This document shows positions 1 to 49,492 of a DNA stretch of 64,000 nt, one piece after another. Source of the stretch: Nemertoderma westbladi (lineage: Eukaryota; Animalia; Xenacoelomorpha). The position numbers and the translations under genes were made by a program. Positions within the stretch are counted from its first letter, which is position 1, and each line of letters opens with the position of its first letter. The notes beneath the pieces were generated by a model. It worked only from the letters and a program-made list of their open reading frames with translations, was not told the DNA's origin and made no database searches. Location of the stretch: NCBI GenBank assembly GCA_032718475.1, contig JAUCBJ010007021.1:33536-97535 (forward strand). The letters are read 5' to 3'.

Positions 1-53
1 TTACCATATTTCACTATATACTGTATGTCAACATTTCACTATAACGTCTATCT

Positions 54-587
54 TCTATACCTATAAAAATCAAATTCTCTCTCTCTCTCTGTGTTCGAAC
101 TCCTCCAAAACGGGCGGAGGGATCGCGCTGGAACTTGGCATGTGTGTATAACTTTAACCAGCGGTCGTTATAGGCCACTTTTCGAAAAGTTTAATTCACG
201 TTCGGTACCGGTACTGGGTACCGGTACGTCAGTAGGCCTATACCGGTACCAGTACGCCAGTAGGCATATGCCGGTAGCGGGAAATACCGGGTAACATGCC
301 TCGGGTATTGCCTGCTAGTCTATACCTATAAAAATCAAATTCTGTCTCTCTCTCTCTCTGTGTTCGAACTCCTCCAAAACGGGCGGAGGGATTGCGCTGG
401 GACTTGGCATGTGTGTATAACTTTAACCAGCGGTCGTTATAGGCCACTTTTCGAAAAGTTTAATTCACGTTCGGTACCGGTACTGGGTACCGGTACGTCA
501 GTAGGACTATACCGGTACCAGTACGCCAGTAGGCCTATGCCGGTAGCGGGAAATACCGGGTAACATGTCTCGGGTATTGCCTGCTAG
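54..587 (+). mobile_element. Two head-to-tail copies (54-318, 319-587) of a ~267-bp non-autonomous Helitron-like element
   Basis: Each copy starts TCTATACCTATAAAAAT and ends with a GC-rich subterminal hairpin (CCGGGTAACATGCCTCGGG) followed by CTAG. The copies are near-identical and no TSD is visible. Confidence 0.7.
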
Positions 588-1027
588 TAATCTATAAAGC
601 CTACTTTGTTTAAATGTTATTGTTACTGTCTATATTGTGCTTCCCTATGGTCGGTATTTCGGGTGGAATCCTTGCGTAAAGTAAAGGTTTCATATAATGT
701 GTGTTTTAGGTTGCTATTTAAATATAGTAGAAACGACGATGCCGACACAATGTTTGTCCAATATCGCGTTAATACCTTTACGAGTACACTCCGGGTACTT
801 ATTTACTCCTTGTTGAATCGTATATCGAAGTCTAACTCTATTATTTCTGCTTGTTATAATGGTTGCTCTGACTCAGTCCTTCGGGACCGTTGGAACACAC
901 TATTAATGTAATTTAATTATTTGTAATAACCATATTGTTGTGCTATAATTATTAAACATTTATTGTATGTACAATGGGCTACGGCCCGATTAAATAAAAG
1001 TAATAATAATAATAATAAATAATAATA
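588..1027 (+). mobile_element. 5'-truncated 3' end of a non-LTR retrotransposon (C-terminus of the RT ORF plus 3' UTR)
   Basis: ORF 606-911 reads LFKCYCYCLYCASLW...LRKVKVSYNVCFRLLF, typical of the post-RT region of LINE ORF2. It is followed by AATAAA and a (TAA)n tail at ~993-1027. Confidence 0.7.
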
Positions 1028-1030
1028 CTG

Positions 1031-1410
1031 TAATAACTTACCCTATTTCACTATCTTACCCTATTTCACTATAAGGTACCATATTTCACTATAACTTACC
1101 ATATTTCACTATAACGTACCATATTTCACTATAACTTCCCATATTTCAATATAACTTACCATATTTCACTATATCTAACCATATTTCACATTTCTTACCA
1201 TATCTCATTAAAACTTACCATATTTCACTATAACTGTATAACGTAACGTACCATATTTCACTATATATTACCATATTTCACTATAACTTACCATATCTCA
1301 CTAAAACTTACCATATTTCACTATAACGTACCATATTTCACTATAACTTACTATATGTCACTATAACTTACTATATTTCACTATAACTTACCATATTTCA
1401 CTATAACTTA
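1031..1410. repeat. 20-bp satellite (CCATATTTCACTATAACTTA)n, left part; a fragment is also at 1-45
   Basis: Tandem units are directly visible. The array is interrupted by LTR element 1 and resumes at 14302. Confidence 0.95.
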
Positions 1411-2601
1411 TGTAAAAGCTTTTGTGGGATAACTGATACGTTTGCCTTTGCTGGCCAGTTCCCCCCCAGTCGCTAGAATACTCTCAAAGGGATTTATAAC
1501 TAAAATAGTGCAAGCTACCAGCTTATTGGCTGATGTGCTATACGGAGATATCTGGGCTCAGTTTAATCGGCCAACTAGCTTAGAGAGGTTGCCTTAGCCT
1601 TGCTGCCCGTGTCGGCCAATAGAATTTGCGTGGGCGTTGATTTCGACCTATCCCAGCGCTACTGAACTGAATTTCCTATCTCTATGCTCATCCTCTGTGT
1701 TGAACGGGGCTTCGTGGAATAAGGGTTTTTGGTATACTCGTATAGTGGTAGTAGTCATATGATTTTATATGATTCTGTTGTTATGTTCCCATTTTTCGCC
1801 ATAACACCGGCTTTTTGGGAAGAACTCTAGTAAAACTGCTTAAATTATCGAAAGTATAAACTGTTACCTCACCTACCGATCAATCTAATCAATCAACCTA
1901 CCTATTAATCATATTGTTTGTACTGTTATTTACCGTCAGTTATTAATTGTATCTATTTGTTGATGGAAATATTGCTCTTTGGAGAATACTGATAAATCAC
2001 CCAAATTTCCCAATTTTCTTGATACACTACAGGTTAGAGAGACAGGCTATATATAACAATTGCGATTTATATTAATGTGGTGTATTGAATCTAATGTTAT
2101 TTAGCAGACCCTACATGAGTCAATTACTGCTCTCTTTATGTGTGATCAAATATACTGACGGTCGGCAGAATAGTGTGCATGATTGTGATTGGTAACAAAG
2201 TATTTCCTAAAGAATACGCTTTATACTTTAATCATAAGCAGTATCGTTGCGTTTAGTATAAGTCCTAGTTCTGTTTAAATAGATAGAGCGCCACGTCCTA
2301 AAGGAACTGTTAATATTTCCCGAAAGCCAATAATATCTGTCAGGAATTAATTATTAACGATCTATCGAATAATACAGTAAGTTTACACTGCAACCTTACA
2401 CTGCGATAATAAAATTTAAGCATCCGAATTCAGCCTCCCGGGTGTAGATCCATCGGGTGAATGATCGCGCATGGGCTGACTTCGGCTAATGTTTTGTGTA
2501 TTAGCATAAAATATCGTCGTATGCTAAAGGTGTTTTAATTAACTAAAAGACATATAAATTTTGGCAGGTTAAACTGCTAAAGGTCTTCAAAAGCGCGAAC
2601 A
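1411..2601 (+). repeat. 5' LTR of copy 1
   Basis: TGTAAAAGCTTTTG...AAGCGCGAACA; direct repeat of 13111-14301. Confidence 0.97.
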
Positions 2602-2614
2602 GTAACAGTTTATA
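2602..2614 (+). promoter_or_regulatory. Non-tRNA primer-binding site of copy 1 (GTAACAGTTTATA), complementary to LTR positions 1855-1867
   Basis: Abuts the LTR end, has no TGG, and is the exact reverse complement of TATAAACTGTTAC inside the LTR. It covaries in copies 2 and 3. Confidence 0.75.
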
Positions 2615-4338
2615 ATCTTATTGCAGTAGGCAATAAGGTTGCAAAATACCGTAGTGACTGGTAAAACTGAACCGGTGCTTCTGTAGGTCAGTAGGCCTAA
2701 CTGTCATCACCGGTACCGGTACTGCTGTACAAGTACATTTAGTATTATTCGATTTTGATTATTGTATACCGGTAGGCTGTTTAAGAGATTAGGGACTGTA
2801 CACCCCTTGTTTCTTTTGGAGCTTACTTATTTCTGTCGGTTTTATTTCCTAGTAAGTTAATATTGAGCTGAAGACGTGTAAGTCTGCTCAGATTGTTCAA
2901 ATAATTGTAGGCTGAACTGCTGTCTGACTGTGTTGAGTTTGGAGAGATTACGGCGTGTGTAGAGTTTGTCTGATAAAGTGCCGTTAGTAAGTTGGGGCAG
3001 CCATATGCGGTAAGGTCAATCCCCTCTTAAAGAATAAGTCGTACTACCGTGTTAGAACGCATACTAACTAACAGTTTCAGAGTCTGCATATACTGTAGTT
3101 TATTTAGGCTTGATCGTAGTCTGCCAGTGTTTTGGCCTGTGTCTGTTTGAGTATTCTGTACGGGTAGCGTAATATTTATTATTCAGAGTTTATGCGATTA
3201 TTCGCAACATTCATGTCCCCAAGTTTATTCCTACAGTAATTGTGCTTGTTATACATACCGTTATAGTTAAACTAACCCCGGTACTACATCAGGGCTGCTC
3301 GGCGTAGGTAAAGACTGGAGATTTTGTGCTTCGGTCACTCCAGCAGATGCCGTGGTTCTTTTAACTGTTCAAGTATATTTAACTACTGATTATTTGTTAT
3401 ACCGGTACTTGTACCTAATTTAGGGTTTAGTGTACAGTGCTTTCCGAAGTAATTAGTGTAGGCAGTATATTTGTGTTGTAAAGTGGTTGATAGGCACATT
3501 CGTTAGCTCTATTAGCTTCTGGGTAGGAACAATCAGTGATACATAACGTAGTACCTATAGCGATACGGTTATAGGTCGTCAGGCGGTGGTATTTTCCTAT
3601 CTGGACAGTACAGTATATTTACTACTACTTATTATTTCAAATACCGTAGTACCCTGTCCGTTGTAATAACCAGAAATCTAACCCTTTGTTAGGCTGGTTT
3701 GTAGTTCCCTGTAAAATTACCCTAAAAATTTCGTACGTAATATTTTGTTGTGTTTAATTAGAGAATTAATCTCATCAGTATCGTAAGTAATTTGTAGTAT
3801 TAAGTAACTTAGGTAAATTAGAATTATCAGTTTTAGTGTCAAATAAATAGCACTTCACTGAGAGGCGTTCAGCTTCTGTGTAGTGACTCCCCCAGAAATA
3901 ATAACATTTATTTCAAATATTGACAAAAACCCATATAAACGGGTATATAAATATTATAAATCAAATCAAACGATTTATAAATAGTAGGCCTTTCATACAA
4001 CAACTAGGTCTCACTACCAGTTGGACTACTACTTAAACAACGGTAATAAAGTAAGTTAAAGTAACTACAAACTAAGTAACCCTAAAATATTCAGGAATTC
4101 AATTATTCTAAAAATAATTGACATACCGGTACTTACTATAGGCTTATTATATTTATCTCTATAAATTTGAGCTGAAATCATACCGGTACTCTGTAATTAA
4201 TTCTAGTTCATAATTATACTTATATACTATAAGTGTAAGCTGTATACCGGTATTCACTAGGCCTATAGGCCTACTATATATATGTATATATTTGTGCTAA
4301 ATTATATACCGGTACTCTGTGACAAATCTAGTCTGTAA

Positions 4339-5168
4339 TAGGGCTCGATCGGAGTTGGGATTTGGCCGGAGCCGGAGCAGGAGCCGGAGTTGGACAATTT
4401 GGCCGGAGCCGGAGCAGGAGTTTTTCAAAAAATTTTAAAAATTTAAATATTTATTTAAAAAAAATAAAGTATGGTTATCGTTCGCCAATCGCTCATAATC
4501 AATCATACTGCTGTACTGTAGGTCTAATTAATTTCATAATTTATAGATTTACGAATTTTCAATTTAAAATTTAAGTAATTAATTTATCACGGACAGACGG
4601 CCTGACGCTGACGGCTAAAAATTACCTACAGTACCTAACTCACTAACTGTCTAACTGTGGCTGTGTGGTAGAGGTGTGTACTGTAGGTTGCCTACCGCTG
4701 TACCGTAGGCTACATGTACCAGTACTGCCAGACCAGCAGACTGCAGTACATTATGCTGGCATGACAGTCCGTAAATGGCTGCAGTGGTGCAGTGTACAAT
4801 CATAGCATTTACAACAATTTTTTACAGTATGGCCTATCTGTAATAGTCTGCTGGTCCAGTGTCCAGTAGTCAGCCAGCTGGCCAGTACCAGTACTGCAGT
4901 ATAGTCAGATAGTCAGGCAGTCATTGACTAAGTAAATACTGCAGTATTATGCTTGATATTGAAGCTGTACTACAGTACTGCAGTATGACAGTACTTATAG
5001 CTGTATAGGCCTAGTGTAAATAATTGTTCAGATTAGAATATGCACGAAATATAATACTTTATCAAAAAAATTAACTCCGGCAATATTTTTACCGGAGCCG
5101 GAGCAGGAGCCGGAGGTGCCAAAATGGCCGGAGCCGGAGCCGGAGGCCGGAGCTCCGATCGAGCCCTA
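4339..5168. mobile_element. hAT-superfamily MITE (830 bp) inserted in the leader of LTR copy 1
   Basis: 16-bp TIR TAGGGCTCGATCGGAG / CTCCGATCGAGCCCTA, 8-bp TSD GTCTGTAA (4331-4338 / 5169-5176), subterminal CCGGAG repeats. Absent at the homologous site in copy 2. Confidence 0.92.
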
Positions 5169-5346
5169 GTCTGTAATAATACTTATATATATTATAAGCA
5201 TACCGGTATTCTAATATATTGTATATATATCACGTTACACTGAGTAACGGTACCGGTAATAAATCGCTAGGCTTGCGGTCATACTGAATTACTAGACTTG
5301 CTTTAACTGAAAATATAGTAGTAGACATTCAACTGTATAACTAAAC

Positions 5347-8300
5347 ATGTCTGACACTCAGCAAAACCTGTCAGACAGTCTGATCGATACAACTATCTGT
5401 GATTCAGATAGGAGTGTGGAGCGAATAAGAAAGGAGTTCGGCTCACCTCCTACTGTAAAAAAGGTCATCCCTCCAGTAGTATCAGACCCTAGGCTAGTCC
5501 ACCATAGGTCCATCATAGGCACTCGGGCACAAGTAAAACGGGACCAAGAGGCAGTTGTCCTATCGCAGCAACATCTTGGTCAAGAACCTACTTCCCAGCG
5601 ACCCGATAGCTCCAGCAGTTCGGATACTGTAGAGTTGACTCCCGAACATGGAGTGCAGATGGCTGATACAGTCTACTCGGACCCCCTTCTTACTCTTCCT
5701 GCTGCAGTGCTAACTACTATATTCATTGCGGTGGAGGAACATCAAGCCGACTGGGCGAAGAATAAGCGAGCGACCCAAGATAATTACGCGGGATACGCCA
5801 GGGAAGAATTGATATCTATTGTTGAATCACAATGGAACTTTCCCGGACTCGGACTTCCGTTGGATCTGTCCGAGGCTACTTGGGAAGATATACACAGGAT
5901 GGGAGTGGCTAAAGATACAATGGATCCAGCTGTTTGGAAGAGGTCGGCAGCAGGATATGTGCAGGGATTCTTCGGATCCTTGGATCGATTGGAAGAACAA
6001 CTGTTTCGACAACCTCACGGACCTCAAGAGCAGGAAGAACTGCTATATCAAATACGCGAAAGAACCCTACGCATACGACTAATCCTCTCAGCCTTTGAGG
6101 AAACTTCCAAAAGAAGACAGGACACGTCGCTGCAGGTTGCTGTCAAAACTTGGCTACATCGGGTAGATCTCAAAGTACAGGAAACGGCCCAGTGGAAATC
6201 CCAGCTGGCTGAGAGATCAACCTATGAAGAACCAACTGATGTCACCCTTTCTCAAGCGAAAAGCGAAGAGGCCGCCGAGGAACCGCGAACTAGAGACGCT
6301 ATCGACATTTATTTGTCCGACTATCAGCGATTCCTAGGAGACGAAGAGTTGAGGAGACGGCTGTCTGGACTTTCCCCTAATAGTGAAGGAACCAAGCTTG
6401 TGTTGGACTCAATCGATGCCGAAATGTTAGCTGCAAACCAAGCTGAATGTGATGAAAAACTCCGCCTCACTAGAGTCCGAGAAGAACAAATAAAGAAAAG
6501 AAGGATAGAGGAACAAAAGGCGGCGGCTATGGCAGATGCAGAAGCAGAAAGAAAAGCAGCAAAGGCGGCGGCTATAGCAGATGCAGAAGCAGAAAGAAAA
6601 GCAGCAAAGGCGGTGGCTATGGCAGATGCAGAAGCAGAAAGAAAGGCAGCAAAGGCAGTGGCAGAAGCAGAAAGGAGAGCATCTGAGCAGACTACCCAAC
6701 TGGAGTTGGAAAATCTGCAAGAGACACAAGACAGTATAAATAAACAGTTTACTGCTAATCAAATGCAGATGATGAGAAAATCTAATCCCAAGCGCCAGGG
6801 ATACACATCCTCGGAGGAAGGCGATACTACCGATCCTGAAGGCGGAGGAAATAGATCTCATCTAAGTAGGCGTAGAAAAACATATTACCGTCGCAAATTG
6901 CCTGATTTGCCCCCAGCTGTTAAAAGACAGCTAACTAGCACAGACTTAGGTAGTGCAGAACCCATAGAACAATTTATCCAGGTCAAAAGACTCCCTACTA
7001 TAGTCGATGAACCTGAAATAATTAGGCCTGTTGTTCCCAAAGTCACTTCTGTGCTAGAGACCCCTACACTTCCAGAGCTTAACTCTAAATTCCCTTTACA
7101 TAGTACTACACTGCCTGTACCCGGTGGAACAGTCCATGCAAATACCCCTGTCCAGATAGCAGAGAGAGAAATCAATAATTTGTCTCCCGTCGTCCCGCGT
7201 CAGCCCGCTACTATGTTGGCGACTCCCGCTTCGGCGGTTGAGTGGGTGGAAGAGGGACGGCGGGGGATGAATCTCCTGCTAGGACAGATGCAGGAGACTG
7301 TCCACCAACTTAAGGGAACAGTGAGGGAAGGTAGAGCAGAGTTGCAAGAAGTGCAGCAAAGTATCGCGCTAGAACGCAACAAATTAGTCAATATACAAAA
7401 AGGCATACCAATACCCCCTGTAACATTGTGTCAACCCGTTAGGTCTGAAGTATTACATGCGCAAGGTGTGGAGCCTACACGCATCTATACTGCTAGTGAA
7501 GTTGAAACTCCTATAGCAAACCCTATTAAGGGTGATTATAGACCTGTTATTAATGATATTCCCTATAGACCTGATAATGATCCGAGAAATTTGTATACCG
7601 ATAATTCGATATTAAATAACACGATGGCCCAAGAAAGCTTTACGCGTCAGATGGCTAGAACAGAAGCCCGCCAAGCGGTCAAAGTGGGAGAGATCGTCAA
7701 ATTCAATGGAGACGAAATGAAATGGTTACCTTTCAACGAATATTACAAAGATAGCATACAGAACTCTGTACTATCTAACGGAGAGAAACTTAGATTCCTC
7801 ATCAAGTGTTTGGAAGGACCTCCCAAGTTAATGGCGTTAAAGTTTATTGGACATCCAGAAGGATTAAGACAAGTTTGGGATACATTAAATATCAGGTATG
7901 GTAATAAGGATAACATAGCTAAGTATTTGTATGCAAAATTAGTAGCCCCCCGACACTTCCTTAGTAGTGGGATTATAGAGTTTTCCGATGAAATTCAAGA
8001 GATCTGTAGACAACTGGACTGGTTAGGTAAGTCGCACGAATACCAGAGTTCCATGGTTATTGGAGCCGTAGTCTCTACTTTACCAAAGGGTGGAGTATGT
8101 ACACGCTGGGACAAGAAAGTGTTGTACATGAATGAACAACAACGACGAAGTCCTACTATGGCTGACCTCATGTCTTTCTTAGATGGTGAAGTCAAACTAC
8201 AACTCATCAAGCAGTCCAGAGAGAAAACATCGGAAAATAAGGTAAGTGAGAAACCCGTTTCTAGGAGAAGGATAATACCAGTGTGTTATACTGACGACGG

Positions 8301-9963
8301 CGAAAGCCAAGCTTCTCAAGAAGAGGACAGCAGGAAAGACACAGCAAAATCTTACTATGACAACAAGACCTATAAAGACGTAAGTAAATACAAGTCTCGA
8401 ACCAGTGACAGGAGAGAACAGGTAACAACAACTCCTCCTACGTCTCCTAAGAGAATTCACGGAAGAAAGCCCGAAGAAAGAACGAGAGTGCATAACGTTA
8501 ACCAAGTTAAGGTGAGTAACATCAAACCAAAATGTGCGCTGTGCGACGGGCCCCACCGTTTGAGTGCGTGTGCTGAATTTCTAAAGAAATCCCCTGTAGA
8601 CAGACGTACAGTCCTGTGGAATAAGCGGTTATGCTATAATTGCCTCAGATCAGGACACCAACGGCGAACCTGTTACTCCGACGTAAAGTGTGCAAAGTGT
8701 GGCACGAAACATCACATCTTGTTACACAGTGAGTTCGAACGAGACAACCCGAGTCAGGTAAGTGAGCCCGAACTACATGTCCAATTCAGTGATGTGAACG
8801 ACACTGACCAAGGTTCTGAGTGGGAAGGATTCTATACAGACGAATTCTCCGATGCCAACGAATCCTGTTATCTAATAAATACCACAGTGTATCGAGCACT
8901 TACGTATGAAAAGGACACTGACGAGTTTACTCCAACTCCTTTTGACAAACAACCATCTTGGAAAGTTCCAACTTCCAACATAGGAATAAGAGAATTTCCT
9001 GTAGTGCAAGTGAGAGTTCATGGTCTCAACAAGAGTTACATAGTGAACGCCCTACTTGACTCCGGCAGCACAGGAACATTCATCGATCAAGAACTAGCCG
9101 AAGATATCTTTGCTGGACAACCCAAGTTCCGGACTAAATTGAATATGTCAGGAATTATGCAGGTTTGGAAATCTACCCTAACGGCAGATTACTATGTAGG
9201 TGTGTTGTCCACCCCCCAGGATAAGTTAGGAACACAAGGTATAAGGTCAGTAAAAATGGTGGCTATAAAGAACTTTGCTACTACTCAAGCAGAACCTTAT
9301 AATTGGGACGAGGATGAGAACATCCAACATCTTAAGATACCTCGATTCCAGACAGATTATCCTGGAGTGCAAATACTCATCGGCCAAAACGCGCATGAGG
9401 CGCTCGAGCCATTGGAGAAACGGCCTGCTCAACCGCAGCCACTGCAAACTTATGCGGTAAGAACTAGAGTAGGTTGGTACTTCACTGGCCCTTCCCGTAG
9501 AACTCTCAAAGAGAGATTACCTCAACAACAGGTATACCAAGTAAAGGAATGGGAAGTGGAGAGCAGTGATGTGGACGATCCAACTGAGGGAACACCATAC
9601 TCCTCAGATAATGACGATATTAACTCCAATGTAGATCAATGGAGACATTGCCTTGGGACGATTAATCCAGCCGACATCGCTTCCAGAGGAGCAACTCCTC
9701 AAGAACTGATAGATACTCCAGGCTGGTTAGGTGGATCCGACTCCTTAAGTAAAGAAGAAGAAGAATGGCCTCCTCATCTTACCACGGCAGAAATTAGACA
9801 GGCCAAGGGAGCGGAGAAAGTAACACAACAACTCAATCGCCCAGCTAGTCGTTTATGTTTACTGGAAAGAGACCGAAAACTGTCCGAAAACTATGGAAGG
9901 CAAGATACTCTTCCTACGACTACTTCCCTAATCCGGCAAATATCTAGGGACTCCATAACGTGA
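5347..9963 (+). CDS. gag: Bel/Pao Gag-protease polyprotein (1538 aa) fused in frame to short RNase H and integrase C-terminal remnants
   Basis: DUF1759-like capsid region (KFNGDEMKWLPF...LSNGEKLRFLIKCLEG). Three Bel/Pao-type Cys/His knuckles (CALCDGPHRLSAC, CYNCLRSGHQRRTC, CAKCGTKHHILLH). Aspartic protease ALLDSGSTGTFI...ILIG...TRVGW. Then QWRHCLGTINPADIASRG (end of RNase H) and RPASRLCLLE (end of Pol). No YxDD or DDE motif. Confidence 0.92.
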   Translation: MSDTQQNLSDSLIDTTICDSDRSVERIRKEFGSPPTVKKVIPPVVSDPRLVHHRSIIGTRAQVKRDQEAVVLSQQHLGQEPTSQRPDSSSSSDTVELTPEHGVQMADTVYSDPLLTLPAAVLTTIFIAVEEHQADWAKNKRATQDNYAGYAREELISIVESQWNFPGLGLPLDLSEATWEDIHRMGVAKDTMDPAVWKRSAAGYVQGFFGSLDRLEEQLFRQPHGPQEQEELLYQIRERTLRIRLILSAFEETSKRRQDTSLQVAVKTWLHRVDLKVQETAQWKSQLAERSTYEEPTDVTLSQAKSEEAAEEPRTRDAIDIYLSDYQRFLGDEELRRRLSGLSPNSEGTKLVLDSIDAEMLAANQAECDEKLRLTRVREEQIKKRRIEEQKAAAMADAEAERKAAKAAAIADAEAERKAAKAVAMADAEAERKAAKAVAEAERRASEQTTQLELENLQETQDSINKQFTANQMQMMRKSNPKRQGYTSSEEGDTTDPEGGGNRSHLSRRRKTYYRRKLPDLPPAVKRQLTSTDLGSAEPIEQFIQVKRLPTIVDEPEIIRPVVPKVTSVLETPTLPELNSKFPLHSTTLPVPGGTVHANTPVQIAEREINNLSPVVPRQPATMLATPASAVEWVEEGRRGMNLLLGQMQETVHQLKGTVREGRAELQEVQQSIALERNKLVNIQKGIPIPPVTLCQPVRSEVLHAQGVEPTRIYTASEVETPIANPIKGDYRPVINDIPYRPDNDPRNLYTDNSILNNTMAQESFTRQMARTEARQAVKVGEIVKFNGDEMKWLPFNEYYKDSIQNSVLSNGEKLRFLIKCLEGPPKLMALKFIGHPEGLRQVWDTLNIRYGNKDNIAKYLYAKLVAPRHFLSSGIIEFSDEIQEICRQLDWLGKSHEYQSSMVIGAVVSTLPKGGVCTRWDKKVLYMNEQQRRSPTMADLMSFLDGEVKLQLIKQSREKTSENKVSEKPVSRRRIIPVCYTDDGESQASQEEDSRKDTAKSYYDNKTYKDVSKYKSRTSDRREQVTTTPPTSPKRIHGRKPEERTRVHNVNQVKVSNIKPKCALCDGPHRLSACAEFLKKSPVDRRTVLWNKRLCYNCLRSGHQRRTCYSDVKCAKCGTKHHILLHSEFERDNPSQVSEPELHVQFSDVNDTDQGSEWEGFYTDEFSDANESCYLINTTVYRALTYEKDTDEFTPTPFDKQPSWKVPTSNIGIREFPVVQVRVHGLNKSYIVNALLDSGSTGTFIDQELAEDIFAGQPKFRTKLNMSGIMQVWKSTLTADYYVGVLSTPQDKLGTQGIRSVKMVAIKNFATTQAEPYNWDEDENIQHLKIPRFQTDYPGVQILIGQNAHEALEPLEKRPAQPQPLQTYAVRTRVGWYFTGPSRRTLKERLPQQQVYQVKEWEVESSDVDDPTEGTPYSSDNDDINSNVDQWRHCLGTINPADIASRGATPQELIDTPGWLGGSDSLSKEEEEWPPHLTTAEIRQAKGAEKVTQQLNRPASRLCLLERDRKLSENYGRQDTLPTTTSLIRQISRDSIT

Positions 9964-11583
9964 TAGCATGTGGAGTGGGCGTGTGACTATATCATTTTAT
10001 ATTTGTTTTTATTTTATATTTATGTATGTATTATTATGTAATTTTATTATAATCGTTTTCTTTAATTTTATTTAGTAGAATGTTATTTTAGAATATTTAG
10101 TAGATTAGTGCAATATATTAGTGTTTATTACGTATTTAATTACTTATAATATATTTAGTGCGACGGCAAGAAATAATTATTTTTCTCTTTCCTTACTGTC
10201 CGTATTATATTATAAATGCGAGACTATAGTAAGATGACATGTCAGTACTTCTTAAAGTACAATAAAGCCACTACTATATTTAAAGTATTATTGGTAGGCA
10301 GAGTATTAGGAATGCAAAGTTCAGATCCTCGTGTCTCGGCTAAACCAAGCTCTGGGTAGACCTTGGAAACGACTTGCCTCTTCACACTGACATTGCTTCG
10401 TGCGATATTGCTCTTCTACCTTATAACAAATAATACATATAGTAGCGTGATGTCCCTCTAACAGTAGCGTAAATCGCAAATAAATCTGTTAAACTTTTGA
10501 CCATCTGTAATTCTAGTCGATTAAGATATCGTGGCACCCACCGATATACTTGAAAGACAAATTCTAGAATCAGTGGTTAACGTCCCCAGACAAGTTCTGG
10601 AATAAGTCGGTGCCCATCCTAAATATTAATTTAATATTTATTAAAATCTGTAAAATTCAGATCCGTTAACAATTCTAGTCGATTAAGATATCGTAGCACT
10701 TACCGATACTCTTAAAAGACAAATTTCATAGAATTAAGGATCCTATGTCCCCAGACCTGCTCTGGAATCAAATTGTGTCAATTTTAACATCAAATAATAA
10801 AATTCACGGGAATAAATTTAAATTCATATTCGAATGAATTTCATAAATTGTAATTTTGTGCAATTTACAACATTCCCAAAATTCCAGTAATTAATAGATC
10901 ATGGGAGCGGAGATTCATATTGAGTGTACTAGAGTGCGAGAATCTCCAATATATAGTCAATAGCCGATAAAATTTATAAAATCAGGCATAAAGAGAAGAT
11001 TGACAATTAAAGAATTACTATTAAATAACATCCCAGATCTGTATACATGAGAATTGCCCTAATTCTACCGCTAGTTTTCCATAATGTCACCATGGCAACA
11101 CCCACGCTAGAATTAGAAGCAAGTTAAAGGAACAATAAAAGGCTTACCCCATTGCGTAGCATAAGAGTATACATAACGCACTATTAGTATCCAAGGATAC
11201 ATAGTAATAACGTGACATTCTGGAAGACACTGACTAACGGACAAATGGCATGCATGTGTGCAGTAAGTAATGATTGTATGGAATTTGTGCGTTTATAGGT
11301 GAATGTTACTACTAAAGTGTGTTTACAGTAGCTAATCGCAATTGTAAAGTAGCCCTAACTCTACCGAGATAACCTCAAGTGGATTCAAGCCTTTGGGACG
11401 GACAGTGGTGGGACTTGTGTCGATTGTCGTTGTCGTGCTGTTGCTACATGTTGGCGCAAACACCGCGACAACGGTACATCGGCGCTGAGAAACCCACTGT
11501 CCGGGGTCAAAGACTAGTAGGCAGCGACGCCCGCTTGCCTAAATATTGACTCATACTAATATTAATAAACTCAGATAGCAGAT

Positions 11584-13032
11584 ATGACGGAATTAATAGA
11601 AGATGACCTTGGTATTAGAGAGCGATATACTCTACCTTTACAAGCGTTTGTGGATAGCTTGATACGCGGTGAAGCCGATCCGACTATTACGGAGGACGAT
11701 GGTCGTTATATCGAACCGCCGATGTCCCAAGAGCAACTTACGCGTGAATTGGACTATCGAAAATTAACCGCTCGCTATACGCATCGTAATGGTACGTATA
11801 TGGACTTCTTAACTACCGGCCATCCTATCGATTTACATGATACTGATGATGTGGACGCCGAAGGGGAAATGGTTCTATTTAAATATCATACCCAGCGGCG
11901 TCGTAACGATAAACCGAGAATAGATCACGAAAATTCTATTCGTAACAGACTGGGAAGACGAACCAATATGTCTAGAATCTGAGGAGATTCAGCCTATCGC
12001 GCTCGGAACAGCGACAACGATTACATCCTAGAATGGTATCAAGGTCCACAGTGTCTCACTGCGTACGATTATCGCCATGCCAACTATGTTTCTCGACAAC
12101 GTTATCGGTTATGCGCATCGAGAGACCATGTTACGCCCATGGACACAAACGTCCGCTGTTCCTATTTCCACGAACAACCGGCGATGGAAATTTATTGCGC
12201 GTATTGCAGATTTAATAATTTGCACATTTTTGCGGTTTGCCCTCAATTTATGACTCAATGCCATCATTGTCAATTAAAAGGACACGCCAGCTTTGATTGT
12301 CCCTTTAATCATGATTTAGAGAGCGTAGATGAAATGATTGTACTACGTTATATCAGAGCTTGGGAAGCGAACGCTGATTTACATTGTGATTCACGCCATC
12401 GCTATTATCCTGGACGCGCTTACGAAGGAGTTTATGCGTTCCATCCTTATTTGTTTGCCTCCGTCGAGCAGAAATCGCGCCTATCAAGTTATGAACTATT
12501 GAAGCGCGTTGGAGAATGTATTTCAACCAAATATGTACGCAAATTTCTCAGGAGCATTAATCCGAGTGACATCAATTCGTACAACTTAATAAACTTTATC
12601 CGTCAAGATCCAGCCTATGGAGACTTATTTGTCAACTCACACCCCGAGTTACAGGAAGTATATCGACGGCCTTACGAGTACAGAGCCCGCGAACGCGAGT
12701 TGGAAAGAACCATTAAACCAAGGAAGTTTCTAACTGCCTATGGTCCACCCACGGCCCTCGTTCAGACCACTCGTAAAGGACCCGTAAGAGCGGCTGTCTT
12801 GAAACGAGCTCTCAAAGCCGTTAGACCCCTCTCCCCGGACGTTGATGTCAATCAACCCGGTACTTCGACCGGCGGATATACCGATCGCAATCCCATACCT
12901 TCTGATGCAATCATATTGCACCCTTCACCCAGGAGTTATAGCCCTCCTCGTAAAGTGGCTCGCCCCAAAGAGAAAAGGACTCTTGCTAGCTTTAAAAAAC
13001 TGCGTGAACGCCGTCCGCGCAAGAAAGACTAA
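11584..13032 (+). CDS. Accessory ORF of unknown function at the env position of copy 1 (one frame, interrupted by a single TGA at 11980-11982)
   Basis: ORFs 11584-11982 and 12139-13032 share a frame and the gap after the TGA is open. Two knuckle-like motifs (CAYCRFNNLHIFAVC, CHHCQLKGHASFDC) and a basic C-terminus. Homologous segments occur in copies 2 and 3. Confidence 0.7.
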
Positions 13033-13110
13033 CTGTTTAGAGTATTTTTATATTTTAGAAACTGTGATTTTGTATATTTTATAGACTTAAATCCCATTTT
13101 CTGGGAGCGG

Positions 13111-14301
13111 TGTAAAAGCTTTTGTGGGATAACTGATACGTTTGCCTTTGCTGGCCAGTTCCCCCCCAGTCGCTAGAATACTCTCAAAGGGATTTATAAC
13201 TAAAATAGTGCAAGCTACCAGCTTATTGGCTGATGTGCTATACGGAGATATCTGGGCTCAGTTTAATCGGCCAACTAGCTTAGAGAGGTTGCCTTAGCCT
13301 TGCTGCCCGTGTCGGCCAATAGAATTTGCGTGGGCGTTGATTTCGACCTATCCCAGCGCTACTGAACTGAATTTCCTATCACTATGCTCATCCTCTGTGT
13401 TGAACGGGGCTTCGTGGAATAAGGGTTTTTGGTATACTCGTATAGTGGTAGTAGTCATATGATTTTATATGATTCTGTTGTTATGTTCCCATTTTTCGCC
13501 ATAACACCGGCTTTTTGGGAAGAACTCTAGTAAAACTGCTTAAATTATCGAAAGTATAAACTGTTACCTAACCTACCGATCAATCTAATCAATCAACCTA
13601 CCTATTAATCATATTGTTTGTACTGTTATTTACCGTCAGTTATTAATTGTATCTATTTGTTGATGGAAATATTGCTCTTTGGAGAATACTGATAAATCAC
13701 CCAAATTTCCCAATTTTCTTGATACACTACAGGTTAGAGAGACAGGCTATATATAACAATTGCGATTTATATTAATGTGGTGTATTGAATCTAATGTTAT
13801 TTAGCAGACCCTACATGAGTCAATTACTGCTCTCTTTATGTGTGATCAAATATACTGACGGTCGGCAGAATAGTGTGCATGATTGTGATTGGTAACAAAG
13901 TATTTCCTAAAGAATACGCTTTATACTTTAATCATAAGCAGTATCGTTGCGTTTAGTATAAGTCCTAGTTCTGTTTAAATAGATAGAGCGCCACGTCCTA
14001 AAGGAACTGTTAATATTTCCCGAAAGCCAATAATATCTGTCAGGAATTAATTATTAACGATCTATCGAATAATACAGTAAGTTTACACTGCAACCTTACA
14101 CTGCGATAATAAAATTTAAGCATCCGAATTCAGCCTCCCGGGTGTAGATCCATCGGGTGAATGATCGCGCATGGGCTGACTTCGGCTAATGTTTTGTGTA
14201 TTAGCATAAAATATCGTCGTATGCTAAAGGTGTTTTAATTAACTAAAAAACATATAAATTTTGGCAGGTTAAACTGCTAAAGGTCTTCAAAAGCGCGAAC
14301 A
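13111..14301 (+). repeat. 3' LTR of copy 1
   Basis: Direct repeat of 1411-2601, preceded by CCATTTTCTGGGAGCGG at the PPT position (identical in all three copies). Confidence 0.97.
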
Positions 14302-17300
14302 ACTTAGCATATTTCACTATAACGTACCATATTTCACTATATATTACCATATTTCACTATAACTTACCATATTTCACTATAACGTACCATATTTCACTAT
14401 AACGTACCATATTTCACTATAACTTACCATATTTCACTATAACTTACCATATTTCACTATAACTTACCATATTTCACTATAACTTACCATATTTCACTAT
14501 AACGTACCATATTTCACTATATATTACCATATTTCACTATAACTTACCATATTTCACTATAACGTACCATATTTCACTGTAACGTACCATATTTCACTAT
14601 AACTTACCATATTTCACTATAACTTACCATATTTCACTATAACTTACCATATTTCACTATAACTTACCATATTTCACTATAACGTACCATATTTCACTAT
14701 ATATTACCATATTTCACTATAACTTACCATATCTCACTAAAACTTACCATATTTCACTATAACGTACCATATTTCACTATAACTTACTATATGTCACTAT
14801 AACTTACTTTATTTTACTATAACTTACCATATTTCACTATAACTTAGCATATTTCACTATAACGTACCATATTTCACTATATATTACCATATTTCACTAT
14901 AACTTACCATATTTCACTATAACGTACCATATTTCACTATAACGTACCATATTTCACTATAACTTACCATATTTCACTATAACTTACCATATTTCACTAT
15001 AACTTACCATATTTCACTATAACTTACCATATTTCACTATAACTTACCAAATTTCACTATAACGTACCATATTTCACTATAACTTCCCATATTTCAATAT
15101 AACTTACCATATTTCACTATATCTAACCATATTTCACATTTCTTACCATATCTCACTAAAACTTACCATATTTCACTATAACGTACCATATTTCACTATA
15201 TATTACCATATTCCACTATAACTTACCATATTTCACTATAACGTACCATATTTCACTATATATTACCATATTTCACTATAACTTACCATATCTCACTAAA
15301 ACTTACCATATTTCACTATAACGTACCATATTTCACTATATATTACCATATTTCACTATAACTTACCATATTTCACTATAACGTACTATATTTCACTATA
15401 ACTTACCATATTTCACTGTAACTTACCATGTTTCACTATAACGTACCATATTTCACTATAACTTACTATATGTCACTATAACTTACTATATTTCACTATA
15501 ACTTACCATATTTCACTATAACTTACTATAATTCACTATAACGTACCATATTTCACTATATATTACCATATTTCACTATAACTTACCATATTTCACTATA
15601 ACGTACCATATTTCACTATAACGTACCATATTTCACTATAACTTACCATATTTCACTATAACTTAGCATATTTCACTATAACGTACCATATTTCACTATA
15701 TATTACCATATTTCACTATAACTTACCATATTTCACTATAACGTACCATATTTCACTATAACGTACCATATTTCACTATAACTTACCATATTTCACTATA
15801 ACTTACCATATTTCACTATAACTTACCATATTTCACTATAACTTACCATATTTCACTATAACTTACCAAATTTCACTATAACGTACCATATTTCACTATA
15901 ACTTCCCATATTTCAATATAACTTACCATATTTCACTATATCTAACCATATTTCACATTTCTTACCATATCTCACTAAAACTTACCATATTTCACTATAA
16001 CGTACCATATTTCACTATATATTACCATATTCCACTATAACTTACCATATTTCACTATAACGTACCATATTTCACTATATATTACCATATTTCACTATAA
16101 CTTACCATATCTCACTAAAACTTACCATATTTCACTATAACGTACCATATTTCACTATATATTACCATATTTCACTATAACTTACCATATTTCACTATAA
16201 CGTACTATATTTCACTATAACTTACCATATTTCACTGTAACTTACCATGTTTCACTATAACGTACCATATTTCACTATAACTTACTATATGTCACTATAA
16301 CTTACTATATTTCACTATAACTTACCATATTTCACTATAACTTACCATAATTCACTATAACGTACCATATTTCACTATATATTACCATATTTCACTATAA
16401 CTTACCATATTTCACTATAACGTACCATATTTCACTATAACGTACCATATTTCACTATAACTTACCATATTTCACTATAACTTACCATATCTCACTAAAA
16501 CTTACCATATTTCACTATAACGTACCATATTTCACTATATATTACCATATTTCACTATAACTTACCATATCTCACTAAAACTTACCATATTTCACTATAA
16601 CGTACCATATTTCACTATATTACCATATTTCACTATAACTTACCATATTTCACTATAACGTACCATATTTCACAATAACGTACCATATTTCACTATAACT
16701 TACCATATTGCACTATAACTTACTATATTTCACTATAACTTACCATATTTCACTATAACTTACCATATTTCACTATAACTTACCATATTTCACTATAACG
16801 TACCATATTTCACTATAACTTACCATATTTCACTATAACTTACTATATTTCACTATAACTTACCATATTTCACTATAACTTACCATATTTCACTATAACT
16901 TACCATATTTCACTATAACTTACCATATTTCACTATAACTTACCATATTTCACTATAACTTACCATATTTCACTATAACTTACTATATTTCACTATACCT
17001 TACCATATTTCACTATAACTTACCATATTTCACTATAACGTACCATATTTCACTATAACTTACTATATGTCACTATAACTTACTATATTTCACTATAACT
17101 TACCATATTTCACTATAACTTACCATATTTCACTATAACGTACCATATTTCACTATATATTACCATATTTCACTATAACTTACCATATTTCACTATAACG
17201 TACCATATTTCACTATAACGTACCATATTTCACTATAACTTACCATATTTCACTATAACTTACTATATTTCACTATAACTTACCATATTTCACTATAACT

Positions 17301-17663
17301 TACCATATTTCACTATAACTTACCATATTTCACTATAACTTACCATATTTCACTATAACGTACCATATTTCACTATAACTTACTATATGTCACTATAACT
17401 TACTATATTTCACTATAACTTACCATATTTCACTATAACTTAGCATATTTCATTATAACGTACCATATTTCACTATATATTACCATATTTCACTATAACT
17501 TACCATATTTCACTATAACGTACCATATTTCACTATAACGTACCATATTTCACTATAACTTACCATATTTCACTATAACTTACCATATTTCACTATAACT
17601 TACCATATTTCACTATAACTTACCATATTTTACTATAACTTACCATATTTAACTATAACTTAC
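14302..17663. repeat. 20-bp satellite (CCATATTTCACTATAACTTA)n, ~165 units
   Basis: Tandem units with recurring variant blocks (higher-order duplication). The array ends at the splice donor of exon 17664-17783. Confidence 0.97.
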
Positions 17664-17783
17664 CAAATTTCACATTGTCCCGGAGCCTCTTCATCGCATT
17701 GCAATACATCACCTTCGTAGGGACATTCACATTCGCAATCTGAAGGAGGAATGTCGCAGTCCATAACTCCATCCTTACAGATG
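17664..17783 (-). CDS. Exon of mucin-like gene: cysteine-rich (VWC-like) segment ICKDGVMDCDIPPSDCECECPYEGDVLQCDEEAPGQCEI
   Basis: CAG acceptor and GTAAGT donor, 120 bp, phase 2-2, joins in frame to exon 17943-18171. Confidence 0.85.
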
Positions 17784-23497: not shown

Positions 23498-26400
23498 CGC
23501 AAGGAGAAGTAGTTGTTGGAGGTACGACTGGTGGGGTGGTTGTAGGAGGTACTACTGGTGGGGTGGTTGTAGGAGGTACGACTGGTGGGGTGGTTGTAGG
23601 AGGTACGACTGGTGGGGTGGTTGTAGGAGGTACGACTGGTGGGGTGGTTGTTGGAGGTACGACTGGTGGGGTGGTTGTAGGAGGTACGACTGGTGGGGTG
23701 GTTGTTGGAGGTACGACTGGTGGGGTGGTTGTAGGAGGTACGACAGGTGGGGTGGTTGTAGGAGGTACGACTGGTGGGGTGGTTGTAGGAGGAACGACAG
23801 GTGGGGTGGTTGTAGGCGGTACTACTGGTGGGGTGGTTGTTGGAGGTACGACAGGTGGGGTGGTTGTAGGAGGTACGACTGGTGGGGTGGTTGTAGGAGG
23901 TACGACTGGTGGGGTGGTTGTTGGAGGTACGACTGGTGGGGTGGTTGTAGGAGGTACGACTGGTGGGGTGGTTGTAGGAGGTACTACTGGTGGGGTGGTT
24001 GTAGGAGGTACGACTGGTGGGGTGGTTGTAGGAGGTACGACTGGTGGGGTGGTTGTTGGAGGTACGACTGGTGGGGTGGTTGTTGGAGGTACGACTGGTG
24101 GGGTGGTTGTTGGAGGTACGACTGGTGGGGTGGTTGTAGGAGGTACGACTGGTGGGGTGGTTGTAGGAGGTACGACTGGTGGGGTGGTTGTTGGAGGTAC
24201 GACTGGTGGGGTGGTTGTAGGAGGTACGACTGGTGGGGTGGTTGTTGGAGGTACGACAGGTGGGGTGGTTGTTGGAGGTACGACTGGTGGGGTGGTTGTT
24301 GGAGGTACGACTGGTGGGGTGGTTGTAGGAGGTACGACTGGTGGGGTGGTTGTTGGAGGTACGACTGGTGGGGTGGTTGTAGGAGGTACGACTGGTGGGG
24401 TGGTTGTAGGAGGTACTACTGGTGGGGTGGTTGTAGGAGGTACGACAGGTGGGGTGGTTGTTGGAGGTACGACTGGTGGAGTGGTTGTAGGCGGTACGAC
24501 TGGTGGGGTGGTTGTAGGAGGTACTACTGGCGGGGTGGTTGTTGGAGGTACGACAGGTGGGGTGGTTGTGGAGGTACGACTGGTGGGGTGGTCGTAGGAG
24601 GTACGACTGGTGGGGTGGTTGTTGGAGGTACGACTGGTGGGGTGGTTGTAGGAGGTACGACTGGTGGGGTGGTTGTTGGAGGTACGACTGGTGGGGTGGT
24701 TGTAGGAGGTACGACTGGTGGGGTGGTTGTTGGAGGTACGACTGGTGGGGTGGTTGTAGGAGGTACGACTGGTGGGGTGGTTGTTGGAGGTACGACTGGT
24801 GGGGTGGTTGTAGGAGGTACGACTGGTGGGGTGGTTGTTGGAGGTACGACTGGTGGAGTGGTTGTAGGAGGTACGACTGGTGGGGTGGTTGTAGGAGGTA
24901 CGACTGGTGGGGTGGTTGTAGGAGGTACGACTGGTGGGGTGGTTGTAGGAGGTACGACTGGTGGGGTGGTTGTAGGAGGTACGACTGGTGGGGTGGTTGT
25001 AGGAGGTACGACTGGTGGGGTGGTTGTTGGAGGTACGACTGGTGGGGTGGTTGTAGGAGGTACGACTGGTGGGGTGGTTGTAGGAGGTACGACTGGTGGG
25101 GTGGTTGTAGGAGGTACGACTGGTGGGGTGGTTGTAGGAGGTACGACTGGTGGGGTGGTTGTTGGAGGTACGACTGGTGGGGTGGTTGTAGGAGGTACGA
25201 CTGGTGGGGTGGTTGTTGGAGGTACGACTGGTGGGGTGGTTGTAGGAGGTACGACTGGTGGGGTGGTTGTTGGAGGTACGACTGGTGGGGTGGTTGTAGG
25301 AGGTACGACTGGTGGGGTGGTTGTTGGAGGTACGACTGGTGGGGTGGTTGTAGGAGGTACGACTGGTGGGGTGGTTGTAGGAGGTACGACAGGTGGGGTG
25401 GTTGTAGGAGGTACGACTGGTGGGGTGGTTGTAGGAGGTACGACAGGTGGGGTGGTTGTTGGAGGTACGACTGGTGGGGTGGTTGTAGGAGGTACGACTG
25501 GTGGGGTGGTTGTAGGAGGTACGACTGGTGGGGTGGTTGTTGGAGGTACGACTGGTGGGGTGGTTGTTGGAGGTACGACTGGTGGGGTGGTTGTCGGAGG
25601 TACGACTGGTGGGGTGGTCGTAGGAGGTACGACTGGTGGGGTGGTTGTTGGAGGTACGACTGGTGGGGTGGTTGTAGGAGGTACGACTGGTGGGGTGGTT
25701 GTTGGAGGTACGACTGGTGGAGTGGTTGTAGGAGGTACGACTGGTGGGGTGGTTGTAGGAGGTACGACTGGTGGGGTGGTTGTAGGAGGTACGACTGGTG
25801 GGGTGGTTGTTGGAGGTACGACTGGTGGAGTGGTTGTTGGAGGTACGACTGGTGGGGTGGTTGTCGGAGGTACGACTGGTGGGGTGGTCGTAGGAGGTAC
25901 GACAGGTGGGGTGGTTGTAGGAGGTACGACTGGTGGGGTGGTTGTTGGAGGTACGACTGGTGGGGTGGTTGTAGGAGGTACGACTGGTGGGGTGGTTGTT
26001 GGAGGTACGACTGGTGGGGTGGTTGTTGGAGGTACGACTGGTGGGGTGGTTGTTGGAGGTACGACTGGTGGGGTGGTTGTAGGCGGTACTACTGGTGGGG
26101 TGGTTGTTGGAGGTACGACTGGTGGGGTGGTTGTAGGAGGTACGACTGGTGGAGTGGTTGTTGGAGGTACGACTGGTGGGGTGGTTGTAGGAGGTACGAC
26201 TGGTGGAGTGGTTGTTGGAGGTACTACTGGTGGGGTGGTTGTAGGAGGTACGACGGGTGGGGTGGTTGTAGGAGGTACGACTGGTGGGGTTGTTGTTGGA
26301 GGTACGACTGGTGGGGTGGTTGTTGGAGGTACGACTGGTGGGGTGGTTGTAGGAGGTACGACGGGTGGGGTGGTTGTAGGAGGTACGACTGGTGGGGTGG

Positions 26401-36591: not shown

Positions 36592-37907
36592 AAATTCTGG
36601 TGGGGTAATTTCGAGCCCGGAGCTGAAACCGAAACTCTTCTTCTAATTGACAATCGAATCTTCAGTATCACCTCTCTATGTGTGACGATTTTGATGAATT
36701 TTTGTATCCAAACATTATTACTTGGGGGAGACCTTCCATTGCTAATTGTAGATTAATCAAAGATCCAGAAACTAAACTTCATCGACGTACTGCTACAGAA
36801 AAGTCTATCTGTAAAAGCTTTTGCGGACATAACAAGTCATTTTTCCCGTAATGCGCAGAATACTCTAAAATAGCCCTAAATTTATCCAACTACGTGACGG
36901 GAGGGAATCAGAGCCCAGATGACGAAATCTATCAGCTGATTCTTTATGGACGTGGAATCTCATTGTTCGTCCAACCAATCAGAGCGATTTCCCCTTATGT
37001 CTGACAGAGGCCTATGGAAACTCACGCAATGCATTACGGTCTTTGTTTACTATTTTTCTGAGCACCAGAACCGGCTCGGAATCTTCTGTACTTCTGTGTG
37101 GAAGTTTCAGACTTTGGCCTAAACATCAGATGGCTTTGATTATAAGAACGTAAAACTATTAACAATTCAACTACATTGTCATACTTGGATACACATTTCA
37201 TGCATTATGTAACACATACTGACTGTTCACCGCATTATTTTACTTCTGTTATTAATTGTTGTTATGTTAATGGATATTGCTGTTATATTTGGAGAATACC
37301 GATAAATAATCATAAAACCCTCAATCTTCTTGATTACTGAAGGTAGGAGGAACAGGTTTACCGGTAGCAACTGCGACTTACATTATAGTGGTTTTTGTGT
37401 GAATTAAATGTTATTTCATAATCCCTACATGTGTCAGTTGCGATCTTCCTTATATATGATCAAATTCAGTGACGGTCGGCAGATCAGTGTGAAGTAGTGT
37501 GAAGTCGTGTGAAGTAGTGTGAAGGTTAATAAAGCATCTCCTAAAGAATGCGCTATTTACGAAACTCAGTGGCCATCTAGTTGTGATTAGTATAAGTCAT
37601 AACTCTGTTTTTATACTTAAAGCGCCACGTCCTAAAGGAACTGTTAATATTTCCCCGAAAGTAAATATATTGTCAGGGATTATATAGTAACGATCAATTG
37701 AATAATACAGTAGGTCTACACCGCAATCACTATCAAGGAATCCGAATCCAGTCTCCCAAAACCGTGGGTGAAAGGTCGCGCACAGACTGGCTTCGGCTGA
37801 TGTAACTTCAGTACACTAGGTAATTGTTATAGGCTAAAGTCGATTTATAAACAAAAGGACAACTAAAATTGGCAGGTTAAACTGCTAAAGGTCTAAAAGC
37901 ACGAACA

Positions 37908-37918
37908 TTAATAGTTTT
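37908..37918 (+). promoter_or_regulatory. Non-tRNA primer-binding site of copy 2 (TTAATAGTTTT), complementary to LTR positions 37152-37162
   Basis: Exact reverse complement of AAAACTATTAA; abuts the LTR end. Confidence 0.75.
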
Positions 37919-48649: not shown

Positions 48650-49492
48650 TCTCTGCTTCAGGTTGAAGCCGACAAACTTGAAGCTCTTGGAGTGCTTCAG
48701 AAGCCAGAGAACGTTGGAGTTGAGGTTCTTTATGCCTCAGCTAGCTTCCTCGTTAAAAAACCACCAGATGGTCATCGCTTAGTCACCAATTTGAAATTAG
48801 TTGATATGTGCGGATACTTCCCTCCAAATCTACGAGGTTTGATGATTTTCTCCGGAAGATCTCTTCATTTCTTATTATTACCGACCTGACGAAAGCTTTC
48901 ATTCAAATTAAAGTTGATAAACGTTTGGTTCCATATCTTAAATTGGCACAGTTACACCTTTAAAAGGTCTTCGTGTTTACACTCGATATGCCATGGGCAT
49001 TGCAGTGGCGTGGCTTGAAGATTAGACTCTTCGAGTTCTGGGAAATCTGATTCAGGATGGCTATGTTGATAAGGTTGCAGACGATCTTTATATTGGAGGC
49101 AATAATTTGATCACTTGCTCGAAATGTGGTCTACTGTCTTGGAACATTTATCCAATAATAACCTCAAACTTTCTGGTGCTAAAATAATTGCATCTCATAG
49201 AGAAGCCATGACACTAGGTTGGGAGTGGTCTTCTGGGACATTGACAATCTGATGAGGCTGATTTATAAGAGGTTATATGGATCTCGTTGTATTCCGGGAT
49301 ATTCCTCTTTATTAGCTGTAATAGAAAATACTATTAAGAAGCTTCAGGGTCGTAGCCTAATTGTGTGGTCATCAGAGCAACTGAAACATTTTGAAACTGC
49401 TCAAAAAATTCACTAAGATCACCTTATGTAATTAGTTACTTTTCCAACACCGGAAGATCAGCTTATTATTACTGTGGATGCATCACCATTAA

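Follow-up and report, generated by a model that had tools for sequence, protein, structure and literature searches.

Three related LTR elements were found in a 64-kb window of the Nemertoderma westbladi contig JAUCBJ010007021.1 (the window being the whole stretch of DNA that was analysed, 64,000 nt), and in each of them the bases directly following the 5' LTR are the perfect complement of a site within the element's own LTR. This self-complementarity is real and lies well above chance. It very likely serves a Tf1-like self-priming of reverse transcription in one form or another, the probable form being a primer supplied by the copy of the site within the 5' LTR. A sequence-only reading of the window had proposed that a Bel/Pao family starts its minus strand by self-priming, independently of tRNA; this core proposal is supported here by Watson-Crick covariation, an edge of conservation behind the site, predicted flanking duplexes and eight of nine distant relatives, within the limits set by a sample of three copies, by some three to four independent changes and by flanking duplexes that are clear only in copy 3.

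The starts and ends of the LTRs were set by means of the LTR pairs and, in copies 1 and 2, the target-site duplications (TSDs). Copy 1 spans positions 1411-14301 on the plus strand. Its LTRs (5' LTR 1411-2601, 1191 nt, TG...CA; 3' LTR 13111-14301) differ at 3 of 1191 positions and are flanked by the TSD ACTTA (1406-1410 and 14302-14306); a short purine tract is located just 5' of the 3' LTR. The element sits within a 20-bp satellite array (1033-1410 and 14301-17673), from whose repeat unit the TSD is derived. Copy 2 (36810-45950, plus strand; 5' LTR 36810-37907, 3' LTR 44818-45950) has LTRs that are 96.6% alike and the TSD CTATC. Its 3' LTR begins with some 56 nt of the LTR 5' end in duplicate (44818-44915), a feature that its 5' LTR does not have. 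In copy 3, on the minus strand, the 3' LTR occupies 53568-54740 and the last 636 nt of the 5' LTR occupy 63365-64000, the window end cutting off the rest; 5 differences were counted in these 636 nt. Since the conserved 3' part of the LTR is 72-78% identical between the copies, they represent subfamilies and not recent duplicates. The window further contains a 27-bp tandem array with about 414 copies at 95% matches (23512-34681), in which open frames of more than 3000 codons run on both strands, and arrays of 20, 36, 27 and 55 bp in its vicinity. Short ORF fragments at about 48600-50500 look by eye like a decayed pol, presumably of the Ty3/gypsy type.

The larger ORF of copy 1 (ORF1, 5341-9963, plus strand, 1540 aa) encodes a Bel/Pao Gag (DUF1759, E 8e-12), Cys-His knuckles, a protease and a short C-terminal RNase H remnant of about 50 aa, which matches the C-terminus of the RNase H of Bel/Pao polyproteins. 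Pao peptidase and/or DUF1759 accessions were present on all 28 protein matches with listed domains, and judged by the type of their Gag and protease the elements are Bel/Pao. A tblastn search with four full Bel/Pao polyproteins gave no match to reverse transcriptase (RT) or integrase anywhere in the window; only gag, protease and the RNase H remnant were matched. All three copies are therefore regarded as non-autonomous deletion derivatives and not as full Bel/Pao members, and the missing enzymes (RT, RNase H core and integrase), a deficiency that the sequence-only reading had left unmentioned, must act in trans. No close protein relative of ORF1 was found in the protein sets searched: the closest proteins share 24-38% identity, the named ones deriving from sea urchins, a nemertean, a pseudoscorpion and insects. 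Likewise, a 20-nt conserved LTR motif had no match in viral or metagenome contigs and the protein profile no relative in viral contigs. A second, Cys/His-rich ORF of copy 1 (ORF2, 11983-13032, plus strand, 349 aa from stop to stop) is partly kept in copies 2 and 3; it has no Pfam match, and its matches in the ESM Atlas, all below 0.9, are zinc-knuckle-like. The family is abundant, as 10,894 contig pieces of sequencing run X1 mapped to 1.6 kb, a figure which is not a copy number. With the Belpaoviridae (genus Semotivirus) the copies share the DUF1759 Gag, the Cys-His knuckles, the protease and the RNase H remnant, TG...CA LTRs of 1.1-1.2 kb (0.2-1.2 kb by definition), a short purine tract as polypurine tract and a 5-bp TSD. 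They differ from the definition of that family in that RT, most of RNase H and integrase of the PR-RT-RH-IN pol are missing, and in that a variable PBS stands in place of an 18-nt PBS for tRNA-Arg or tRNA-Gly.

No TGG primer site follows the LTR in any of the three copies, an absence that the sequence-only reading had reported and that was borne out at LTR ends fixed by the LTR pairs. The 13 nt directly 3' of the 5' LTR of copy 1 (PBS, 2602-2614, plus strand) are the exact complement of the LTR site 1855-1867 (plus strand), which recurs in the 3' LTR at 13555-13567. Perfect complements of 11 nt each were found in copy 2 (PBS 37908-37918, site 37152-37162, plus strand) and in copy 3 (PBS 63354-63364, site 54310-54300, minus strand), the site of copy 3 being readable only in the 3' LTR. 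These six stretches had been described correctly. The distance between the site and the LTR end is, again as described, nearly constant with 734, 745 and 732 nt in copies 1, 2 and 3 (725 nt in the 3' LTR of copy 2). In all three copies the base directly 3' of the site is a C, so that the terminal A of the LTR cannot pair and the pairing ends precisely at this position, which the earlier reading had recognized. Dinucleotide shuffles of the LTR matched the observed length in 0, 5 and 2 of 3000 cases (copies 1, 2 and 3). The sequence is AT-rich, and arbitrary offsets within the internal region yielded matches of at least 11 nt at a rate of about 0.1% (10, 8 and 9 offsets, the PBS itself counted), a background from which an inverted repeat could have arisen by chance in one ancestor. 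The match at the very position of the PBS, the homology of the sites, the paired changes and the recurrence in unrelated families with different letters make this origin extremely improbable.

Within the 11-nt core all pairs are of the Watson-Crick type in all three copies (11/11) and no G-U pair occurs, and PBS positions 1, 5, 10 and 11 vary between the copies, with both strands changing. Position 12 is paired in copy 1, forms a G-U pair in copy 2 and is mismatched in copy 3; set against the LTR of copy 2, the primers of copies 1 or 3 achieve pairing of only 4-7 nt. The claim that both sides change together was thus confirmed for 4 of 11 positions. These correspond to about three to four independent changes, positions 10-11 (copies 1 versus 3) possibly representing one indel, and the three copies are not independent trials. 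The LTR sites are considered homologous because the 21 nt upstream, outside the paired bases, are alike: in an ungapped register anchored at the 3' end of the site, the identity between copies is 11/21, 13/21 and 17/21. An alignment of the whole LTR with MAFFT placed the site of copy 2 about 17 columns off.

This covariation bears on the question whether the PBS binds a host tRNA, a half-tRNA or a tRNA fragment, the match to the LTR being secondary. For the Belpaoviridae, priming by host tRNA with an 18-nt PBS for tRNA-Arg or tRNA-Gly is stated by the ICTV, whose profile calls Bel/Pao replication poorly understood (PMC8742986), and half-tRNA priming exists in Ty1/copia lineages according to the available part of another source (PMC6317226). 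For the elements described here, priming by such an RNA is highly improbable, as there is no TGG, Rfam gave no match at E up to 1 across 1411-5400 and a PBS in which 4 of 11 positions vary along with the LTR is inexplicable by one constant host RNA. Within the 64-kb window no tRNA genes were found. A poly(A) tail was considered as primer and rejected as a misfit: G is the first base of two of the PBSs, and A[AT]TAAA is absent ahead of the site.

The arrangement resembles that of Tf1 and Tf2 of S. pombe, of Tj1 and of the Tf1/sushi group, in which the PBS directly after the 5' LTR likewise has a complement of about 11 nt within the element's own LTR and no tRNA site is present. The primer of Tf1 consists of the mRNA's initial 11 bases, released by a cut between bases 11 and 12 (available part of PMC7175516); in the window copies 11-12 nt are predicted. 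Self-priming is demonstrated in Tf1, and for Tj1, the Tf1/sushi group, Tcn1 and the TAR lineage of copia elements it is a proposal, as far as the consulted parts of the sources go (PMC4600332, PMC6317226, PMC7175516). The same criterion as in the plant lineages TAR (Ty1/copia) and Tcn1 (chromovirus), a complement of at least 10 nt between post-LTR bases and 5' LTR, applies to the window copies; TAR and Tcn1 belong to other superfamilies, and self-priming is a prediction there, too (excerpts of PMC6317226). Hairpins in place of a PBS have been described for fungal GalEa elements and bivalve TRIMs in the sections available (PMC5445492, PMC6934838). GalEa also lacks a tRNA PBS, but its post-LTR palindrome pairs downstream and has no complement in the LTR, whereas the PBS of the window copies pairs with the LTR (PMC5445492, in part). 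Several features set the window copies apart from Tf1/sushi elements, namely the DUF1759 Gag of Bel/Pao type, the non-autonomous state with cutting and copying in trans, a loop of about 735 nt and a covarying internal partner for the primer 3' end. The window elements most likely work like Tf1; they are not members of the Tf1/sushi group (Ty3/gypsy chromoviruses). As a possible precedent, the C. elegans element Cer7 reportedly carries its own tRNA-like primer.

Transferred to the window elements, a Tf1-like course would comprise the following steps. The RNA would start at or 5' of the site in the 5' LTR, and the 11-12 nt of the site (12 nt, 1856-1867, in copy 1 if the start is a purine) would anneal to the PBS across a loop measuring about 735 nt, with two predicted flanking duplexes to keep the pairing in place. 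RNase H and RT of an autonomous partner would then act, with a cut right after the site and before the conserved C. RT would extend the cut 3' end through U5 and R, and at the cut, a place of hypervariable sequence, the product would be transferred to the 3' LTR. Plus-strand synthesis would finally copy the primer into the new PBS; the self-primer of Tf1 is reportedly not removed after priming. If the primer is copied in this manner, changes in the site would be written into the PBS, which would account for the strict and wobble-free covariation.

RNA folding was used to inspect the surroundings of the PBS. With copy 1 folded from position 1856, nucleotides 2-12 are predicted to pair with the PBS at a probability of 0.93-1.0, while the AU-rich duplex of site and PBS in copy 2 (-8.2 kcal/mol) is populated to only about 8% of the predicted ensemble. 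For the 24 nt following the PBS, the segment with the best pairing is situated some 200 nt upstream of the LTR end in all three copies (-14.3, -20.4 and -25.9 kcal/mol); in copy 1 this corresponds to a predicted pretzel-type duplex just 3' of the PBS between a U5 segment (2393-2410, plus strand) and a leader segment (2617-2631, plus strand), the latter alternatively forming a local hairpin (2614-2640). One-sided changes between the copies preserve this leader-side pairing; shuffled sequences were as good in 142, 26 and 0 of 300 cases for copies 1, 2 and 3, so that it is significant only in copy 3. A second pretzel-type duplex just 5' of the PBS is predicted between an invariant hexamer at about -135 (2465-2470, plus strand) and the LTR end (2593-2598). 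Taken alone it is weak (45 and 68 of 300 shuffles), and in copy 2 it is not the best pairing and has one pair broken. A conserved U5 hairpin is predicted about 20 nt before the PBS (2561-2580, plus strand) with pair probabilities of 0.97, 0.96 and 0.88 in the three copies. Duplexes flanking the primer-PBS pairing make up the pretzel topology of Tf1 (bioRxiv 10.1101/2022.12.06.519325, available in part). For the window copies the predictions, in which the leader-side duplex is significant in one copy of three and the LTR-end duplex weak, make a Tf1-like three-duplex pretzel with a U5 hairpin around the PBS plausible. RNAalifold on three sequences did not predict the helix of site and PBS, because the 5' LTR of copy 3, cut by the window, is without the site.

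An internal hexamer (2192-2197, plus strand, in copy 1) equals PBS nucleotides 1-6 and has counterparts at 37526-37531 in copy 2 and at 53955-53950 in copy 3 (minus strand). It is anchored by conserved downstream sequence and varies together with PBS positions 1 and 5 in each copy; alone, it is within chance (98, 251 and 97 of 500 shuffles). In copy 2 the hexamer is part of an AATAAA word and may lie near the polyadenylation signal. According to the predicted folds it is able to pair with the 3' end of the primer at the base of a long helix, and it could thereby sequester this end. The sequence directly 3' of the site pairs with 2166-2194 in predicted folds, an arrangement that fits either RNA end. 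The LTR is rich in conserved predicted helices and offers the site an alternative, covarying partner, as would be expected if the pairing of site and PBS were a long-range RNA structure or switch that controls packaging, translation or polyadenylation, with priming by another RNA or from another site. We consider such a purely structural role quite unlikely. The duplex starts at the first post-LTR base, exactly where minus-strand synthesis must begin, the helices nearby accept G-U pairs and bulges whereas the duplex of site and PBS has none, and no other primer site is in view.

A further argument for self-priming derives from sequence conservation in contigs of sequencing runs. The site is part of a family-wide conserved block (1835-1869, plus strand), which ends 1-2 nt past the self-complementary site and is followed by hypervariable sequence. 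Contig depth is high over 1835-1869 and then falls 14- to 26-fold within five bases in runs X1, X3 and X5. In X1 the summed depth drops from 245,552 (1865-1869) to 17,057 (1870-1874) and 1,783 (1880-1884), in X3 from 183,651 to 10,471 and 1,269 over the same steps, and in X5 from 8,727 to 335 across the edge; by position 1880 the fall exceeds 100-fold in X1 and X3. These three are DNA-labelled runs, and contigs less than 80% alike were left out, hence members resembling copy 2 are invisible in this comparison. Among the differences listed for the contigs of X1, X3 and X5 there was no substitution at 2% or more in positions 1850-1868, and a one-base deletion at 1860, the form found in copy 3, occurred in one contig each of X4 and X5. 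We infer that the hypervariable stretch after 1869 may mark the end of the strong-stop DNA and the transfer point, and the edge at 1869 is compatible with an RNase H-dependent cut after the predicted primer.

The position of the RNA start is less easily reconciled with a primer at the 5' end. As the sequence-only reading had cautioned, TATA-like words overlap the site or lie just 5' of it in each copy: TATAAA overlaps the site of copy 1, and in copies 2 and 3 TATAAG is located 12 nt upstream of the site. If such a word acted as a true TATA box, transcription would begin past the site, which speaks against a primer formed by the 5' end. A pyrimidine-purine step at the start of the site in all three copies is a weak hint to a start there. 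Alternatively, transcription might be started by the TATA-like words a few bases past the site, and the self-primer might be released from the site in the 3' LTR or from a second RNA; promoter and primer could then both lie in the conserved block 1835-1869. This variant of self-priming appears unlikely to us. The TATA-like word shifts its position between the copies, and a cut in the 3' LTR would presumably detach R from that RNA, so that another, uncut genome and one more cut would be required. Priming from the 5' LTR copy is therefore preferred.

A broader basis was obtained from distant Bel/Pao relatives. A profile built from 24 full-length protein matches led to 79 Bel/Pao loci in metagenome contigs (from the best 80 of 518 confirmed), which share 22-28% identity with the window element in gag-protease. 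The 79 loci form 60 clusters at 85%, and an LTR boundary could be used in 17 loci, each from a different cluster; the others were without a boundary or repeated a tested family. Nine of the 17 have an LTR end set by two LTR copies (the 3' LTR copy of L055 ends with the contig, the LTRs of L029 are 74% alike, the LTR end of L015 was taken from L016, and for L028 the LTR was read from the 3' copy). None of these nine carries TGG after the LTR, and eight of them possess a perfect self-complement of 10-13 nt which starts 0-5 nt past the LTR and was equalled in 0-2 of 200 shuffled leaders. Two of the eight complements are contiguous; the remaining six become continuous only after removal of an intron of the form GT[AG]AG...YAG. 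The ninth locus, L044, has a self-complement of only 8 nt (11 of 200 shuffles) and is unconvincing. Among the eight loci for which only the LTR start was known, six gave 10-15 nt, from 6-61 candidate ends tried per locus without a null. A scan for contiguous complements in 49 relatives without known LTR ends revealed little excess (at least 10 nt in 14 of 49 versus 97 of 490 shuffles). The contig of one locus, L034, contains tandem Bel/Pao units at 1-13890 with 100% identical copies of LTR and leader at 1, 6139 and 12277, representing either a tandem insertion or an assembly artefact.

The primer ends in AC in 12 of the 14 positive relatives, and a C then follows in 9 of 14; copies 1 and 3 of the window show the same AC followed by C, and copy 2 agrees in part (C follows). 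The loop measures 62-233 nt in the 14 positive relatives versus about 735 nt in the window family. In L007, L015, L018, L027, L028 and L055 an intron of 71-366 nt with GT-AG borders is predicted in the LTR, and the PBS is exactly complementary to the exon junction; four of these intron-split families have one common 11-nt core with flanking covariation. Judged by these predicted introns, the relatives show that the primer may lie inside the transcript and is not necessarily the capped RNA end. In the window, the site is contiguous in all copies and no GT[AG]AG donor precedes the sites. No intron-like joint was found in the mapped contigs; the contigs of X4, a run only guessed to be RNA, contained no splice joint or tail, which carries no weight either way. 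The U5 of L007, L027 and L055 contains, at 44-76 nt upstream of the LTR end, a direct copy of 8-9 nt of the PBS start (0-1 of 500 shuffles), possibly a decoy; such a copy was not significant in 11 of 14 relatives nor, alone, in any window copy.

Altogether, a self-complementary primer site looks widespread among the Bel/Pao elements sampled, whereas the sequence-only reading had put forward an independent evolution in one metazoan lineage. A gag-protease tree of 52 rows was calculated quickly and without a mixture model, with L030, L031, L055 and L057 dropped as partial. It places the window element on a branch of 1.72 beside insect and Hydra proteins, a placement flagged as unsure, and apart from the 38 rows holding the self-complementary loci. 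Because the window element is long-branched and unplaceable, the tree gives no statement on a single versus repeated origin.

A more far-reaching reading, which we put forward tentatively and as possible rather than probable, would be that much of Bel/Pao primes without tRNA by using an RNA piece from inside its own transcript. Intron-split and contiguous primers would then be two states, the contiguous one possibly derived by intron loss, the internal hexamer would keep the 3' end of the primer in an off state up to the refolding of the RNA onto the PBS at a distance of 735 nt, and the primer would possibly come from the 3' LTR copy. If true, this would constitute a regulated self-priming route distinct from the scheme of Tf1 with its first 11 bases.

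Our literature searches found no earlier account of self-priming in Bel/Pao elements, in agreement with the sequence-only reading; subscription journals, Repbase reports, the full ICTV report and supplements were outside their scope. A term search for PBS and priming in the Bel/Pao or LTR surveys PMC3118150, PMC554778, PMC2774666 and PMC6238403 gave no occurrence, and the available part of PMC8220671 mentions the PBS only generically. In the section at hand of a further source, tRNA priming was suggested to be a late event (PMC3601003).

The proposed course leads to base-exact predictions for copy 1, namely that an RNA 3' end falls at 1867 and a new 5' end at 1868, and that the strong-stop cDNA carries an RNA of 11-12 nt. 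If self-priming holds true, the mechanism of Tf1 would be extended to a third LTR superfamily, with consequences for the question whether priming by tRNA arose late or is ancestral. It would also imply that the RNase H of Bel/Pao elements, supplied in trans, is able to cut an RNA-RNA duplex, and it would explain why annotation based on the PBS misses such elements. It would mean, moreover, that these very abundant elements may be freed from the supply of host tRNA and from silencing by tRNA fragments directed against the PBS.
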